In this document: piece by piece, positions 3,966 through 14,756 of the stretch
Layout: each line of letters begins with the position of its first letter
How positions within the stretch are numbered: position 1 is the first letter of the stretch
From: a virus
Lineage: Duplodnaviria; Heunggongvirae; Uroviricota; Caudoviricetes
Length of the DNA stretch: 22,290 nucleotides
Reading direction: 5' to 3' (one strand)
Virus record (IMG/VR): IMGVR_UViG_2563366854_000001
Location: 1-22,290 of that record
Notes under the pieces: generated by a model
Told to the model about the DNA's origin: nothing
Database searches by the model: none
The model's input: only the letters and a program-made list of their open reading frames with translations
Program-made: the position numbers and the translations under genes

Positions 3966-4426
3966 TTTGCTGCTCCTCATCATATCGACCCTGCAAGGTC
4001 GGTTGGTTTCTCCACAAAACAGAGAAGAACACCTGCGGTGGCAGCCGCCCGGATGGATTGGGTTATGAGCCCGTCGTCCGGTGATGCTCTTCTCTGTTTT
4101 GTAAAAAGAGCGGTGCCAGCCGGAAGCAAGTGTACAAACTGGTACCGCCAAAGCAGTGGCTGTTGTGGTGCCGGGTGCCTCCCGGTGCCTGGCGAAGGTT
4201 GCACACCAGGCGGGTGGGTATCCACAGAAGGTCGACTGTCAGCCTCAACCTTAACCCGCGTGCGCTGAGCCGCATTCACCACAACGCTAAGGATTCTCTC
4301 TGGTTGAAAATACTTAGCTGTTATGTGCCTGCTTTTAGCCACATCAGGCGAGGTGGACCTGGTTATTCCCCAACAACAAGGATTCGGTTAATCTTGATAC
4401 CCCCAATAACATGGTGATTATTTAAG
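3966..4426. promoter_or_regulatory. GC-rich ORF-free divergent intergenic region with a long inverted repeat; candidate divergent promoters and/or structured RNA
   Basis: All frames carry overlapping junk-like ORFs; 17-bp inverted repeat (4015-4031 vs 4085-4101, one mismatch) enclosing a 53-nt GC-rich segment; flanked by divergently transcribed genes. Confidence 0.3.
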
Positions 4427-4930
4427 ATGGACAAATTTGATAGAAGTGCACAAAGGCAGTTGTTACAAATACTGTATGATGCTCATCCTTATGAAATTTC
4501 TGATGATGCGTTGCAGTCTGTTCGTGACGCATTTGGAGATGATAATGTCCTAATTTCGAACTTAATTTATCTCGAAGAACATGGCTTGATTAAGAATGCT
4601 CTTGATTATTACTTGGATGGCATAAATATAAATATTCCTGAATTAAGAATTACTAAAGATGGAATTGATTTCATTCGTGATGATGGAGGTCTTAAAGCTA
4701 TTCTTGGGATTATGACAATAAGATTGCATGATGAGACTCTCTGTGAACTTGAACGTATCATCAATAGTTCTACTTCTGCCACGACTGAAGATAAGAAGAA
4801 ATTACTCTCTCAGCTTCGAACGCTTCCTGCCGACGCCATAAAACAGCTGACGATTCGATTACTTGGTCAGGGGCTTGACCATCTGCCGGACGTATTTCAC
4901 GTAATTCAAAAAGCCCTCCATTCTCTGTAA
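4427..4930 (+). CDS. Hypothetical protein, putative N-terminal winged-helix domain (AT-rich accessory gene)
   Basis: 167-aa ORF starting at ATG 4427; AT-rich codon usage unlike flanking genes; motifs LIYLEEHGLIKN and ITKDGIDFI resemble wHTH recognition helix and wing. Confidence 0.6.
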   Translation: MDKFDRSAQRQLLQILYDAHPYEISDDALQSVRDAFGDDNVLISNLIYLEEHGLIKNALDYYLDGININIPELRITKDGIDFIRDDGGLKAILGIMTIRLHDETLCELERIINSSTSATTEDKKKLLSQLRTLPADAIKQLTIRLLGQGLDHLPDVFHVIQKALHSL

Positions 4931-5108
4931 ATTCTGATTCTGGTCGGATTAGACAGAATCGTCCCCATCCGACCTGCTTACTAAGTAGAATCCAGAATTC
5001 GTCTTGTTGGTTGGTGCTGATAAAAAATCCATTAGGATGAACGTAAGCACAGAATATGACCATAGAACCCTCTTTTGTTACGGGGATACTAAGATTGTTA
5101 AAGAGCTA

Positions 5109-5131
5109 AGCGTCCTGTAGGGCGCTTTTTT
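5109..5131 (+). terminator. Rho-independent terminator-like hairpin
   Basis: AGCGTCC-TGTA-GGGCGCT (7-bp stem with one G-U pair) followed by TTTTTT; about 180 nt downstream of the 4427..4930 stop. Confidence 0.5.
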
Positions 5132-5216
5132 GTTGCTAACGAATCATCCGGTCATTCATACGCCACCGGCGGCTACTTCGTGGGCGTCCTGCCTGTCCGT
5201 GATAGCTTACATTATG

Positions 5217-5288
5217 TTGCTACTTAAAGTAGCAAAAATCAACAACAAAAAGTAGATATTTGTTGTTGTCTATGATTTTTCTATAATT
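5217..5288. promoter_or_regulatory. Operator-like palindromes plus a sigma70-like plus-strand promoter
   Basis: Near-perfect palindrome TTGCTACTT-A-AAGTAGCAA (5217-5235), related to the 13-bp motif repeated next to cI/cro; second inverted repeat AACAACAAA-N9-TTTGTTGTT (5241-5267); TTGTTG (5260-5265), 16-nt spacer, TATAAT (5282-5287). Confidence 0.4.
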
Positions 5289-5426
5289 AATTGAAAGTTA
5301 AATGTTTTTGCTGATTTACTATGCTGTAAACTGAAAATATCGCACGAAGTTGGAGTAGGTATTGAGCATAGTGAATTATGAGGAGGGAGTTTTTTATGAG
5401 ATTAATCAGGGAGAAAGAAGAGTAAA

Positions 5427-5446
5427 GCCCGGTTATGCGGCCGGGC
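5427..5446 (-). terminator. Hairpin immediately downstream of the ParA-like gene (candidate terminator)
   Basis: GCCCGG-N8-CCGGGC; on the minus-strand RNA it is followed by UUUACUCUUCUUUCU; begins 8 nt after the ParA-like stop. Confidence 0.4.
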
Positions 5447-5453
5447 ACATGCA

Positions 5454-6530
5454 TTACTTTGTAAGTTCTAGAACTCGTTGAGCCAGCCCTTTAAATTGTT
5501 CGTTAAAGGCGTCTCTGCTTGATTTCATTGTATTTAAGGCATGCCCAAATTGCCCTGAATCGCGAATTTGCTGATCACTGATGGAGAAAACAGGTGTCGC
5601 TAGTTGTTGGCTTATTGCGATTAATGAGTTGAAATCGGAAATATGCGCAAGATCATAGGCTGATAAATCTCCACTGACTGTTGTTTTGTTAATTGCATGT
5701 TGCACTTTATCTCGTGGAATTATGCAGGTAATTTTTTCTAGATTTGGCACTAAGATCGAATCAACAGCATCACGGATAGCTGCCATCCATTTTTCGAAAG
5801 ATTTTACAGGTGCTCCTTTACGCGGCCTGTATCTCTGCTGAATCATACCTAGAAACTGCGGTGCATTTTTAATTGATTGTGAAGAGTTACCATCATTATT
5901 TTCTTTAAATAATGCTAATTCTTTGTGCCAGCGAGGTATATTTTTTGAGAGAGAGCGAATTGCTTGCCAGCAAAAAAAGTCTGGAGCTACAGGTACGATA
6001 AAATAGTCACTTGACATGAGAACTACTTCATTTAAACCTCCAACATTAGGGCTGAGATCATAAAGAATGTAATCAATATTATTCTTCATGGCGATTAGCT
6101 GTAATATTTTTGGCAGGTTCCCTGGTATATTTCTTGTAGCAGGAATACCAGCAGCAATTTTTAGAGAAACACTTATCTGTGAATCTAAGTCCGAAACATC
6201 TAAATGTCCGGGAAGAAGCAGAAGGTTTTCATGCAGTGTAGGGTGTAATTTTCCCGTTTCTTTTTCAAGGTATGCTTCAGGTTGTCCGCCATTAATCAAA
6301 TATTCTACAATAGGTCCAAGAGTTAAGTTATCTCTGCTAGAATAAAAAGAATCTAAACCCTCATCAATCTTTTCATAGCCAAGAACCATTCCTGTTAGAT
6401 TACATTGCGAATCAAGGTCAACCATCAATACTTTCTTGCCTTCATCCGCAAGTGCCCATCCAAGATTGAAGGTTGTTGTGGTTTTACTTACCCCACCTTT
6501 ATGATTAAAAAAACAAATTGATTTTGTCAT
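5454..6530 (-). CDS. ParA/MinD-family P-loop ATPase with long C-terminal extension (orphan; no ParB partner seen)
   Basis: 358-aa ORF; deviant Walker A NHKGGVSKTTT near the N-terminus, VLMVDLDSQCNLT motif, Walker-B-like ILYDLSPNVGG; AGGA upstream of the ATG; AT-rich; same strand as and directly downstream of the cI-like repressor. Confidence 0.8.
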   Translation of the reverse strand: MTKSICFFNHKGGVSKTTTTFNLGWALADEGKKVLMVDLDSQCNLTGMVLGYEKIDEGLDSFYSSRDNLTLGPIVEYLINGGQPEAYLEKETGKLHPTLHENLLLLPGHLDVSDLDSQISVSLKIAAGIPATRNIPGNLPKILQLIAMKNNIDYILYDLSPNVGGLNEVVLMSSDYFIVPVAPDFFCWQAIRSLSKNIPRWHKELALFKENNDGNSSQSIKNAPQFLGMIQQRYRPRKGAPVKSFEKWMAAIRDAVDSILVPNLEKITCIIPRDKVQHAINKTTVSGDLSAYDLAHISDFNSLIAISQQLATPVFSISDQQIRDSGQFGHALNTMKSSRDAFNEQFKGLAQRVLELTK

Positions 6531-6700
6531 ATTTCTCTATCCTTTCGACCCCCAGCATATTGTAATTTACGCTGGGTGATTATTTTATATTGTTAATGAT
6601 AATGTTTAATAAAAATAAGAGAGTAAAACAACTATTAGTAATAGCACTTGCTTGATAAATATTATTTTTTCACCTTTAGTTCTATAGTCTAAACGAAGAA

Positions 6701-7462
6701 CTAAAGCCGGTTGTATTTAATTGATTCGTGTATCAATGCTTTGCCCATAACATAAAGTTGATCTTGGGACTTCTCATCAATGTACCATTTCTCATAGGCT
6801 GGATTATCCGAAAGAACGGCGAGTTTGTTGCCTTGCATTTGTAGACGTTTAACGTGGAACGTCTTACCATAAACGAAAGAGTAAACACCATCAGTTTGGA
6901 AGTTGCGAACAGAAATGTCGACAAACAGTCGATCTCCGGAAACTAGAGTAGGGGACATGCTGTCGCCATTTACAGTCATAACTTTAATATCATCTTGAGA
7001 ACGATTACCGAAAAGAGAACGGGCATGCTCTGTTGTGAACTCAATGGCGTAGAGCACATCAACATAGTCTGAAAGCATATAGGTTCCAGGTCCTGCGCTA
7101 ACGCTAAGATCCAAAACTTCTATCCTGTATACATCGGGTTTTGTTGGATTGGGGATGCTTGCCATTTCCTTACATCCTTCTCTCTCGCCAACACCATATT
7201 CTAAATATGAAGCTGATACCCCCAGAGCCAATGCAAGTTTATTCATGACAGAGGCACGAGGCTTCGCAGCGCCGATTGTGTATCGCCGCGCCATTTCATA
7301 TGTAACGCCCACAAGACTTTTGAGTTGGGTGACAGAAATTCCCTTGTTTGTCATTAGCTCGTTTAGTCTCTTGGCGAAATCTGGATACTTCTGTTCTTCT
7401 ACCATAGGTAGAAGGTTACTCGCATCACATACGCTAGTCATTTCTATTTTAAGTAGTTGCAT
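6701..7462 (-). CDS. cI-like prophage repressor (XRE-type HTH plus S24 LexA-like peptidase domain)
   Basis: HTH LMTNKGISVTQLKSLVGVTYEMARRY; Ala-Gly cleavage-site-like SAGPG; S24 motifs VNGDSMSPTL and KRL. Start is ambiguous (7462, 7441 or 7405) with no strong SD, so it may be leaderless. Confidence 0.85.
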   Translation of the reverse strand: MQLLKIEMTSVCDASNLLPMVEEQKYPDFAKRLNELMTNKGISVTQLKSLVGVTYEMARRYTIGAAKPRASVMNKLALALGVSASYLEYGVGEREGCKEMASIPNPTKPDVYRIEVLDLSVSAGPGTYMLSDYVDVLYAIEFTTEHARSLFGNRSQDDIKVMTVNGDSMSPTLVSGDRLFVDISVRNFQTDGVYSFVYGKTFHVKRLQMQGNKLAVLSDNPAYEKWYIDEKSQDQLYVMGKALIHESIKYNRL

Positions 7463-7503
7463 TCTGCTATTTTAAGTAGCATCATCCCTCTGAATTTCAG
7501 AGG
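7444..7503. promoter_or_regulatory. Immunity-region operators between cI and cro
   Basis: Two identical 13-bp copies CTATTTTAAGTAG (7444-7456 and 7467-7479, 23 bp centre to centre) plus palindrome CCTCTGAA-T-TTCAGAGG (7487-7503) overlapping the cro SD. Confidence 0.55.
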
Positions 7504-7511
7504 AGAAAGGT

Positions 7512-7775
7512 ATGTCATCTCAAAACTACACAGAGAAAGCAGTAAAAGCTGCGGGAAAATCTTTATCTGAAGTAGCCCGTCACTTTGGTTTTAAGTCCAC
7601 TCAATCCGTCGCTAATTGGGTAATTAACAATCAAGTCCCGTCAGAACGGGTTTTACAACTTTGTGAGTTGGGAAACTGGTCCGTGACCCCTCATGAACTG
7701 CGTCCTGATATTTACCCCAATCCAAATGATGGATTACCTGAGTGCTATTCAAAAGTTAGCGGTTCAGCTGCGTAA
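7512..7775 (+). CDS. Cro/YdaS-like HTH regulator
   Basis: 87-aa ORF with GGAGAAAGG upstream; divergent from cI across the operators; C-terminal ELRPDIY resembles the YdaS family (memory-based). Confidence 0.7.
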   Translation: MSSQNYTEKAVKAAGKSLSEVARHFGFKSTQSVANWVINNQVPSERVLQLCELGNWSVTPHELRPDIYPNPNDGLPECYSKVSGSAA

Positions 7776-13247: not shown

Positions 13248-14330
13248 TTAGAACTGATAAACCAGACCTACAGCGACGATGTCGTCGGTATCAATACCAG
13301 CTGTTTTGGTAAACTTACTATCGTCAATTAAGTTGATTTTGTAATCAACAAAAGTAGACATGTTTTTATTAAAGTAGTAAGTAGCACCGACATCGACATA
13401 CTTGACTAAGTCTCGGTCACCATGAACACCAAGGTCTTTACCTTTTGACTGAAGGTAAGCAACAGATGGGCGCAGACCGAAGTCAAACTGATATTGTGCT
13501 ACTGCTTCAAAGTTTTGTGCTTTGTTTGCAATATGGTTATTACCAAAAACGGTCATATTCTGAGTTTCAGAATATGTGGTAGCCAGATAGATATTGTTCG
13601 CATCATATTTCAGGCCTGCAGCCCATACTTCCGCATTTTTGCCGGAGGCATTGAATTTGCTCTTACCATAGGCGACCTGACCGTCAGTGCGATCTGATTT
13701 AGCATAGGTTGCACCCACGCCGAATCCTTCATACTCATAAGTAGTGGAGAAACCGAAACCATCACCATTGGCTTCAGTTACGTCAGTGCGGTCATTTTTA
13801 CCCTGATACTGAGCAGCAAAGTTCAGGCCATCGACCAGACCAAAGAAGTCGTTGTTACGATAAGTTGCAACACCAGTAGTGCGACCAGTCATGAACACAT
13901 CTGTTTGGGTCCAGGTATCACCACCGAATTCTGGCAGAACGTCAGTCCACGCACCGATGTCGTATGCTACACCGTAGTTACGGCCGTAATCGATGGAGCC
14001 GTAATCACCAAATTTCAGGCCTGCAAATGCAAGACGGGTTTTGTCTTTGGAAGAACCTTGAGATTCAGCACGGTTGCCTTTGAATTCATATTCCCACTGA
14101 CCGAAACCAGTCAGTTGATCGTTGATTTGGGTTTCACCTTTGAAGCCAAGACGGGCATAAGTAGTATCACCATCATCTGCATCATTAGAGGAGAAGTAGT
14201 GCTTGGCATTAACTTTCCCGTATAGATCCAGCTTGTTACTGTCTTTATTATAAATTTCAGCTGCCTGAGCAGACATCGCCATCAGTACTGATGCAGCTAC
14301 AGCAGAAATTGCCACTGTTAATTTTTTCAT
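13248..14330 (-). CDS. nmpC: Outer-membrane general porin, OmpC/NmpC family (lysogenic-conversion moron)
   Basis: Start at internal Met [23 protein letters not shown] (signal peptide); porin hallmarks AEIYNKD...LDLYGKV and C-terminal GLVYQF; lies between Q and the holin, as nmpC does in DLP12-type prophages. Confidence 0.85.
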
Positions 14331-14756
14331 TGTACGCCCTTTTTTTGAACTATTATTAAAAAATGATGTCACTGCGCGATAAATATTCATCTAATCAATG
14401 TGATTATTTCAAGATGTAAGTTTTAGTTTCTCATTTAATTTGTGAAGTAGATCTCTATTTTTATCTGAACCTTTTCTATCTAATCCTATTCATGGCTCTT
14501 GTCTGAACAAAAATAAATCTATTAGCTAATTTATATTAATGGCACTTATTTATAAGTGCTCTATAATTCTTTAGCTTAATTTAAACAAACTAAAAATAAC
14601 ATCGGAAATTATTAACTGATTATTTGTTGAAGTTTTCTTATGTATTTGTGGTGGTGTTTTGAACACTCGGTGGCATTCTCACAAATATCATTTAGTAGTT
14701 TACGTACGTAAAAAATTGGTTATGCTGTTAAGAGTGGTTACTTCGTCACACAGCTT

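Follow-up and report, generated by a model that had tools for sequence, protein, structure and literature searches.

A long orphan ParA-like ATPase behind the repressor of a lambdoid prophage: a predicted phage-defence factor related to GiPD474

Background

Why does a lambdoid prophage carry, directly behind its repressor gene, a long ParA-like ATPase without a ParB gene? The question is raised by the virus sequence IMGVR_UViG_2563366854_000001 from IMG/VR (22,290 nucleotides; "the window" below means this whole stretch), a lambdoid prophage whose identical region is found in Escherichia coli WP8-S17-ESBL-12 at the argU tRNA, next to fimZ. In the window, the gene for this protein (hereafter parA) lies 170 bp downstream of the repressor gene cI and in the same orientation. 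The identical RefSeq entry, WP_000167381.1, bears the name "ParA family protein".

ParA-like ATPases of prophage immunity regions are already known as defence proteins, through RemA in 2024 and GiPD474 in 2025. GiPD474 (STM474_RS13505), known from Gifsy-1/Gifsy-3, is a 361-residue ParA/AAA_31 protein encoded by a single gene in the immunity region of Gifsy-1 in Salmonella Typhimurium 4/74 (Bosma et al. 2025, PMC12724215). On its own it cuts plating by as much as 5 logs for phages Felix O1, Alf5 and T4, in Salmonella and in E. coli alike (PMC12724215). In RemAIN of Gifsy-1 (Sargen & Helaine 2024), the ParA-like RemA is reported to function as one unit together with RemI, an immunity protein, and RemN, a HEPN nuclease (PMC9879122, PMC13043305), and remAIN stops incoming phages and also the lytic cycles of co-resident prophages (PMC12724215, PMC13043305). 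The slot between cI and PL holds rexAB in lambda and bstA in BTP1, BstA being lysogen-expressed cargo encoded just downstream of cI with its own terminator (PMC8585504).

We propose that the window gene encodes a stand-alone ParA-type phage-defence (superinfection immunity) factor of the lysogen, a predicted role that we consider probable. It is favoured by the homology to GiPD474, the exchange of the gene with gipd474 and remAIN at one slot, its recurrence behind unrelated repressors, its defence neighbours, its solitary nature, its near-absence from plasmids and its patchy spread. An earlier note, made from the sequence of the window alone, had listed superinfection exclusion or abortive infection among several candidate roles, and it is this one that the GiPD474 homology, the same slot and the defence-island neighbours single out.

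Results

Relationship to GiPD474 and RemA

The sequence of GiPD474 was retrieved from IMG/VR with the published primers (L007:5723-6808), and its GGVGKT motif falls at residues 29-34, as published. BLASTP aligns residues 8-342 of the window protein with residues 25-350 of GiPD474 at 22% identity (E 1e-13). At the level of family profiles, hhalign matches the two across 303 columns (probability 99%, E 3.7e-18), and this alignment takes in a C-terminal motif that reads DFNSLIAISQ..P in the family of the window protein (hereafter the window family) and KDGNTLAAIINHEGCP in GiPD474. The two proteins are also alike in length (358 and 361 residues), in their ParA/AAA_31 fold and in having no effector domain. 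Each is encoded by a single gene directly behind a prophage repressor, in the same slot of near-identical Salmonella and E. coli backbones; the window gene stands alone in the immunity region beside the cI/cro/cII module, as do genes of the GiPD474 family. That family further resembles the window family in size (about 345-361 residues), in keeping 55-65% identity across distant taxa and in its sporadic occurrence.

The Walker A motif of GiPD474 is KGGVGKT and its N-terminus is 17 residues longer, whereas the window protein has KGGVSKTT at residue 11. The insert motifs differ as well: SQISVSLKIAxGIPATRNIPGNLP and DFNSLIAISQ in the window family; CPQSNVSE, CTADAASIRG and KDGNTLAAIINHEG in GiPD474. 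Membership in the GiPD474 study was set at an identity of at least 70% (PMC12724215). The homology is real and covers nearly the whole protein, but by that measure the window family is not part of GiPD474; the two families are separate and each is internally tight, and we regard them as sisters. A phage-defence phenotype is proven for GiPD474 alone, and that of the window family is predicted.

In Gallibacterium (L012) and on a metagenome contig (L100), members of both families are present in a stretch of about 5 kb, and hence the families are not simple orthologues. On the contig (L100:4622-7636, SRR21361704_118), the two genes lie tail-to-tail between murB and trmE, near a canonical chromosomal parAB. 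The GiPD474-family gene there directly adjoins, and is co-oriented with, a gene for a Pol-beta nucleotidyltransferase/HEPN protein. The arrangement resembles a mini-island that unites both long ParA families with a HEPN module, and recalls RemA-RemN.

The remAIN locus was also recovered (L074). Over residues 5-213, in the N-terminal two thirds, RemA and the window protein share 27% identity. Like the window protein, RemA is a ParA-like ATPase with a deviant Walker A motif, and its gene comes first behind the repressor, in the same Gifsy slot. Unlike the window protein, RemA has 279 residues, is without the C-terminal expansions and has RemI and RemN as partners, where the window gene has none. 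Another relative, DIP2308 of the actinobacterium Corynebacterium diphtheriae (about 24% identity; PDB 3pg5, from structural genomics), adds a structure and no mechanism. In comparison with canonical ParA/Soj, McdA and MinD, the window protein has about 100 extra residues and neither a ParB, McdB, MinE or MinC adaptor nor a centromere, and it is not plasmid-borne and is distributed in a mobile, sporadic manner. Lambda RexAB and BstA share with the window gene the status of lysogen cargo after cI with its own terminator, without kinship in sequence or fold. RexAB is a two-protein sensor and membrane system, and BstA is a KilA-N protein.

Among defence-system models, PADLOC 2023 does not recognise GiPD474, and within RemAIN it matches the P-loop region of RemA and nothing in the other two proteins. 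On the window protein PADLOC likewise matches the P-loop region alone (PDC-M28B). Our literature search on the window protein, DUF3024 and ParA-like defence returned the GiPD474 and Gifsy papers alone.

Exchange of cargo behind the repressor

The slot occupied by parA lies between cI and a conserved left-operator block, and the breakpoints of blastn alignments against sibling prophages delimit an exchangeable cassette made up of spacer, parA and terminator (Table 1). In E. coli, the cI segment of the window is found at an identity of at least 99% in 108 genomes and parA, at the same level, in 109. About 97 more E. coli genomes carry a cI that is 91-95% identical, with homology ending exactly at the cI stop codon. 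Three of these were inspected. Two have a GiPD474 orthologue in the slot (361 residues; 93% identical to GiPD474 in the one compared), and the third has an unannotated cassette of two genes encoding 120 and 210 residues. The E. coli GiPD474 orthologue has the accession WP_000606712.1. The two genes of this last cassette are co-directional (L098:2958-3949, E. coli 20AR1039) and have no PADLOC match; the pair is a candidate for a further immunity-region system.

The same exchange is visible in Salmonella. The locus with a window-family gene (P0010) and the gipd474 locus are near-identical in DNA from cro to about codon 125 of cI (94% amino acid identity between the CI proteins), diverge over the cargo gene, and are near-identical again from a common terminator onward. 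In the remAIN locus, identity with this flank resumes some 400 bp beyond that point.

On its left the cassette is bounded by a conserved non-coding block, which divides two variable cargo slots. The core of this block, CAGGCAGGACGCCCACGAAGTAGCCG..GG.GGC.TA.GAA, is near-identical in Salmonella Gifsy-type prophages (L077 ~7490-7560), including the gipd474 and remAIN loci. The block has no Rfam match and its predicted fold is no better than that of shuffled sequence (z -0.8). It could serve as a PL leader or in antitermination, as a nut/put-like element.

To the left of the block lies the second variable slot (~4179-5091), which in the window holds a convergent open reading frame (ORF) of 167 residues (4427-4930, plus strand; PHROG 3983) with its own terminator (5108-5127, plus strand). 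Sibling prophages have in its place variants of 164-171 residues, a gene of the "ECs1072 family", or a ClpX-zinc-finger gene together with hypothetical genes. This slot could be another accessory or defence hotspot. The earlier note had proposed to search genomes for co-occurrence of parA with the 167-residue gene, and as a partner we rejected this gene: among E. coli prophages with an identical parA it varies or is absent, its place being taken by the variants just named or by unrelated genes, and other genera are without it.

Distribution and genomic contexts of the family

More than 5000 relatives of the window protein were found in a search of 5.8 billion proteins, which establishes that the gene is real. 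The best 120 are nearly all of 355-375 residues, at identities of at least 60%, and belong to Enterobacterales, Pasteurellaceae, Acinetobacter, Pseudomonas, Xanthomonas, Chromobacterium, Laribacter, Limnohabitans, Mesosutterella and Megalodesulfovibrio. When each species was represented by a single genome, 57 loci were detected, and the range extended to Alpha- and Epsilonproteobacteria, Akkermansia (56%), Veillonella (54%), Deferribacteres, cyanobacteria and Corynebacterium (36%). When clustered at 50% identity, the tight window family corresponds to about one cluster, surrounded by some 130 clusters at E <= 1e-30, mostly of 340-360 residues. The spread across phyla is patchy at 54-70% identity, from Enterobacterales to Akkermansia, Veillonella and Desulfovibrio, and such a patchy, phylum-spanning distribution indicates horizontal spread. 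The 109 E. coli genomes with the gene are about 2% of the 5426 complete genomes, and in all of them it is chromosomal. Plasmids hold very few relatives (23 of 72,556 records at E <= 1e-20).

Within E. coli, the cI (WP_001535858) and cro (WP_001535859) that accompany parA never vary, although the prophage may be inserted at argU/intD, at thrW or at one or more other sites. In Salmonella Gifsy-type prophages, a family member that is 73% identical (P0010) lies behind a CI of 155 residues. Other, mutually unrelated repressors directly precede the family gene in Klebsiella, Pseudomonas and Mesosutterella, while in Morganella and the P22-like phages ST160 and SE1 a DUF3024 gene stands between repressor and family gene. 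The earlier note had proposed a search for the same gene at other prophage hotspots, and it is indeed found there: in a prophage remnant of Serratia, with the Q antiterminator on one side and lysis genes on the other, and in Acinetobacter and Chromobacterium in Arc/antirepressor prophage regions. In Megalodesulfovibrio gigas it is part of an int-AlpA-DUF3987-primase island, where HicAB, DarTG and a type I restriction-modification (RM) methylase gene (hsdM) come after it. In Campylobacter and Helicobacter it adjoins Menshen NsnA, a MADS mad3-like protein or a type IIG RM enzyme, and in Mannheimia it lies on a small RepB/ParE/insertion sequence (IS) islet. Judging from these neighbourhoods, the family behaves as a self-contained accessory gene that moves among known accessory and defence hotspots.

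Some immunity regions with a ParA-type gene have been interrupted by IS3-family insertions. In strain 146N4 (O157:H7, L097:4981-6194) the insertion lies within or just after cro, and in E. coli strain 550 (NZ_CP058223.1) the region of 3.3 kb is split. These prophages are probably locked or defective, with the ParA-type gene retained.

The ATPase domain also has relatives, at 35-41% identity, that form part of fusion proteins. Four proteins of 608-673 residues (P0301, P0302, P0304 and P0315) join it to a C-terminal Ulp1/RickCE-like cysteine protease, and of two longer ones (P0361, 731 residues; P0250, 1112 residues) one is an N-terminal Schlafen AlbA_2 plus HATPase_c_4 fusion and one a tandem double ATPase. 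We set these fusions aside as evidence for defence, for they are ambiguous: the protease fusion that was examined lies amid housekeeping genes and has an acidic low-complexity tail, and may be a secreted effector, not an immune protein. Orf317 of a Pf1-type prophage of Pseudomonas (L003:3079-4032), present also in phage WX-TY, is about 30% identical over its full length, is annotated "putative regulatory protein / Soj-like" and is placed at the accessory end of the Pf1-like filamentous prophage.

Protein motifs and predicted structure

The window protein matches Pfam AAA_31 (2e-29) and also CbiA, and in PHROGs it falls into PHROG 164, "ParA-like partition protein" (9e-52). Its NCBIfam matches are at P-loop level alone, all far below the curated cut-offs (that of ParA_partition included), and are uninformative. 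The deviant Walker A, Walker A' and Walker B motifs that had been read from the sequence are all present (Table 1). Together with the overall fold, they give the protein the marks of the ParA/MinD (SIMIBI) superfamily: xKGGxxK[ST] with its signature lysine, a Walker A' DxD and the Walker B aspartates. The catalytic set K11, K16, T17, D38, D40 and D158 is invariant in alignments of the window family. Residues K11, G12, G13 and K16 are invariant in the window and GiPD474 families, with at least 98% conservation among 117 window-family representatives, and D38, Q42, N44, D158 and P161 are likewise invariant in both families.

Among the same 117 representatives, 96 of the 358 positions are conserved at 98% or more, and the variable stretches are residues 51-60, 81-100, 141-150, 211-220, 251-290 and 341-358. 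The conserved part includes a near-invariant basic motif, QQRYRPR, which hhalign aligns with QNRSRTN of GiPD474. It may be the counterpart of the arginine after strand 6 with which Soj binds non-specific DNA.

An AlphaFold2 model built from a 63-sequence alignment (mean pLDDT 88.9, pTM 0.90) is a single compact domain with the strand order of ParA. In structure comparison ParA2, pNOB8 ParA, MinD and FleN gave lower Z. The protein had been called unusually long, and this stands insofar as it has 358 residues, about 100 of them extra; these form no separate domain and are insertions within one ParA fold. They are dispersed over an inserted helical stretch that separates Walker A' from strand 3 (residues ~52-100), lengthened helices at 185-211 and 243-266, a variable loop at 270-290 and a long C-terminal helix at 330-357, the last being a high-confidence block (pLDDT 91-97). 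What the earlier note took for an unrecognised C-terminal extension of more than 100 residues is, in the model, the C-terminal third of the expanded ParA fold. The model contains no nuclease, protease, TIR or other effector module, and the protein has no type Ia N-terminal helix-turn-helix or regulatory extension. Judged in silico, it is a complete, catalytically intact ParA fold.

Neighbouring genes and repeats

The description of parA as an orphan of the ParA/MinD class, with neither ParB nor parS nearby, is borne out by Pfam, by the RefSeq annotation and by a repeat search. ParB domains are absent both from Pfam scans of 17 ORFs of the window and from the RefSeq annotation of the prophage stretch examined. 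Between positions 4900 and 7600, the repeats are the operator-like cI/cro 13-mers alone, with no centromere-like iterated repeats by parA. No co-directional partner ORF follows parA, no HEPN gene is nearby in the window, and no minC- or minE-like genes were seen beside parA.

We extended the search to 52 loci of the window family. An all-against-all BLAST of their ORFs found no neighbour family that is common beyond closely related genera, and among the two nearest neighbours on either side (103 proteins upstream and 103 downstream) Pfam revealed no recurring family. Repressors of the S24 family account for 5 of the 103 upstream neighbours, and housekeeping enzymes are common. Across these loci there is no ParB, ParG or other adaptor gene conserved beside the family genes, and no HEPN or other effector gene linked to them.

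Two further candidate partners were rejected. The DUF3024 gene between c2 and the ParA-like gene, considered as an adaptor, was seen in ST160/SE1 (by annotation) and, among the 52 loci, in Morganella alone. A 55-residue ORF (5287-5454) that overlaps the parA stop codon, considered as a ParB/ParG-like partner, spans and passes the terminator, has a hydrophobic low-complexity look, matches nothing in Pfam, PHROG, NCBIfam or PADLOC, and is absent from the RefSeq annotation.

In Salmonella, Klebsiella, Morganella and Pantoea the next feature after the ParA-like gene is a small convergent ORF of 65-91 residues, which is absent from E. coli (Table 1). The Salmonella copy, the one scanned, has no Pfam match. 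It lies within the flank that is common with the gipd474 locus, and thus belongs to the prophage backbone and not to the cassette.

Putative transcription unit and candidate operators

The earlier note had inferred from the position of parA behind cI that it is expressed in the lysogen, and the layout makes this plausible: the two genes are co-oriented, and no terminator was detected in the AT-rich spacer between them. The intrinsic terminator beyond parA closes the putative cI-parA transcription unit. In the spacer there are a weak promoter-like site at 6608-6579 and, 9 nt ahead of the ATG, a ribosome-binding site (AAGGA); for the spacer as a whole, the gain in folding over shuffled sequence is marginal (z -1.9). 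The swapped cassette also includes a perfect 9-bp hairpin, CCCAGCGUA-N8-UAUGCUGGG (6551-6576, minus strand), about 5 nt upstream of this ribosome-binding site, which could be a processing or stability element of a cI-parA co-transcript. Rfam has no match in the whole window, nor in a sensitive scan of positions 4900-6750.

On the other side of cI lie the divergent cro-like gene and, after it, a CII/CP76-like gene. An operator-like motif of 13 nt occurs in the window at three distinct sites (four strand matches), against 0.35 expected by chance. From their sequence and placement, the copies at 7444, 7467 and 5220 are probably the OR and OL operators of the window repressor. The OL candidate puts parA between cI and OL/PL.

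Elsewhere in the window, after the Q antiterminator gene, an OmpC/NmpC-like porin gene (380 residues; 13248-14390, minus strand) represents a classic lysogenic-conversion cargo.

Table 1. Features of the parA region of the window and small convergent ORFs at other loci (named by locus)
Feature	Position	Strand	Remarks
parA-like gene, 358 residues, WP_000167381.1	5454-6530	minus	ATG-to-stop ORF; candidate stand-alone defence ATPase
Deviant Walker A, KGGVSKTT, residues 11-18	6477-6500	minus	signature Lys11, Lys16, Thr17
Walker A'/switch-I, VLMVDLDSQCN, residues 34-44	6399-6431	minus	Asp38, Asp40, Gln42, Asn44
Walker B, ILYDLSPN, residues 155-162	6045-6068	minus	Asp158
Near-invariant basic motif, QQRYRPR, after strand beta-6	5820-5840	minus	candidate DNA-binding patch, from conservation
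Exchangeable cassette (spacer, parA, terminator)	~5286-6698		blastn breakpoints against sibling prophages
Conserved non-coding block	5092-5285		left bound of cassette; divides two variable cargo slots
Intrinsic terminator, GCCCGG-loop-CCGGGC plus T-rich tract	5417-5446	minus	hairpin 5446-5427; 8 nt past parA stop
AT-rich cI-parA spacer	6531-6700	minus	part of swapped cassette
cI-type repressor, HTH_3 and Peptidase_S24	6701-7462	minus	Pfam; RefSeq start 7405 (234 residues)
cro-like gene, YdaS family	7512-7775	plus	divergent from cI
Two exact 13-nt repeats, CTATTTTAAGTAG	7444-7456, 7467-7479	plus	cI/cro divergent region, 23 bp apart; candidate OR
Palindromic operator-like site, CTACTTTAAGTAG	5220-5232		1 mismatch to OR repeats; in conserved non-coding block; candidate OL
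Small convergent ORFs after the ParA-like gene	L075:7139-7345, L079:7146-7349, L008:9112-9309, L058:9219-9494	minus	mutual identity ~20-27%

Discussion

How might a ParA-like ATPase of this kind protect a lysogen? We envisage that parA would be transcribed together with cI, by PRM-type read-through, and/or from its own weak promoter. Binding of ATP would close a sandwich dimer, and the conserved RYRPR patch would let this dimer attach non-specifically to DNA or the nucleoid. A cue from the phage, which may be phage DNA, a replication intermediate or a phage protein, would then alter the ATPase cycle, and infection would be stopped after adsorption. The block could be direct, through binding or mis-positioning of phage DNA or of replication and packaging complexes; alternatively it could be indirect, through a host-encoded effector that the ATPase engages. 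The lysogen, and hence the prophage itself, would be protected from superinfecting phages. Defence as such we hold to be probable, and this specific sequence of an ATP-dependent DNA-binding switch, a phage cue and a post-adsorption block to be unlikely in its particulars.

Several points weigh against a defence role. The identity to GiPD474 is low and the profile score reflects largely the common ParA core, so that the same function would not be guaranteed by the resemblance. There is no effector domain and no linked effector gene to stop the phage. The literature search found no published phenotype, expression or biochemistry for the window family. The conservation of the family is extreme, which would be unusual for a diversifying immune sensor and would fit contact with a conserved cellular component. 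Many copies lie between housekeeping genes without recognisable defence or mobile-element neighbours, and the cI-PL slot can also carry accessory genes with non-defence roles. That PADLOC matches the P-loop region of the window protein alone is uninformative, as PADLOC 2023 misses GiPD474 too.

Some of these same points speak for an accessory ATPase that is expressed in the lysogen and serves something other than defence, either as a regulator of lysogeny and induction or of a host process in the manner of Soj, FleN or MinD, or as a positioning factor for a conserved host structure. Very high conservation across phyla would suggest contact with a universal cellular component, and the copies amid housekeeping genes outside prophages and the lack of an attached effector point the same way. 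A housekeeping or regulatory core function is nevertheless hard to reconcile with a sporadic gene, present in 2% of E. coli genomes and in mobile contexts. The mutually unrelated repressors upstream make a specific partnership with the repressor unlikely, the slot is in common with two experimentally shown defence systems, and elsewhere the neighbours are DarTG, RM and Menshen genes. We consider a non-defence role unlikely on this balance. Positioning of the prophage or the replisome, which the earlier note had also listed, finds no adaptor, no centromere and no plasmid carriage, and many copies are outside prophages; nothing indicates the "toxin-like ATPase" of the same list.

The gene might instead be directed against other mobile elements, that is temperate prophages, satellites or plasmids, possibly with an effector encoded elsewhere in the cell. 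The model for this is remAIN, which in the same slot and with the ParA-like RemA blocks the lytic cycles of co-resident prophages (PMC12724215, PMC13043305). The Pol-beta/HEPN gene that adjoins the GiPD474-family gene beside a window-family gene on contig L100 would fit such a system, and a ParA-type DNA binder is plausible against replicating foreign DNA. Against it, none of the 52 loci links a HEPN or other effector to the window family, and GiPD474 acts as a single gene on the virulent phages T4 and FO1 in a heterologous host. This possibility overlaps with phage defence, from which it is inseparable in silico, and taken as a distinct explanation it is quite improbable.

A classical partition or positioning ParA, acting on the phage genome (as a transient plasmid or in pseudolysogeny) or on a cellular cargo through an unrecognised adaptor and centromere, is very improbable: relatives of about 30% identity in episomally replicating Pf1-type filamentous prophages and the database label "ParA-like partition protein" speak for it, and against it stand the lack of a conserved adaptor gene in the 52 loci, of a ParB domain in the prophage and of flanking iterated repeats, the 23 plasmids among 72,556 and the complete absence from plasmids in the 5426 E. 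coli genomes, hosts that are integrating lambdoid and P22-like prophages, the exchange with gipd474, remAIN or an unrelated two-gene cassette at one site, and the canonical chromosomal parAB that contig L100 has besides its window-family gene. With no partner, no ParB, no repeats and near-absence from plasmids, a conventional partition system is ruled out for practical purposes.

Returning to phage defence, a broader view is possible, if on the speculative side and rather less than likely. Long orphan ParA proteins could be a widespread group of effector-less, single-protein immune ATPases that act by the ParA mechanism itself, comprising the window family, GiPD474 and perhaps the DIP2308-like and Pf1-prophage proteins. 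Their ATP-dependent binding to DNA or the nucleoid would trap or mis-position invading DNA, block its replication or packaging, or sense a universal cue, with no nuclease or NADase effector. The cross-phylum conservation would then reflect a target that phages cannot easily change.

Conclusions

What is new here is a second, clearly separate family of ParA-like ATPases with the same architecture and prophage slot as GiPD474, outside both the cut-off of at least 70% identity used in the GiPD474 study and PADLOC 2023. About 2% of complete E. coli genomes have a member of the family, which is also known from Salmonella, Klebsiella, Pseudomonas, Helicobacter, Akkermansia and further genera. Matched prophages that differ in the ParA-type cassette alone offer a clean experimental handle. 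If the predicted role is true, the enterobacterial cI-to-PL slot would be a three-way, or larger, hotspot of ParA-type immunity, and the two families would form a matched pair for separating phage-sensing from blocking surfaces. The extreme conservation of the window family would then point to a conserved cellular or viral target, and this family would be of relevance to the host range of phages used in therapy, as GiPD474 is for Felix O1.

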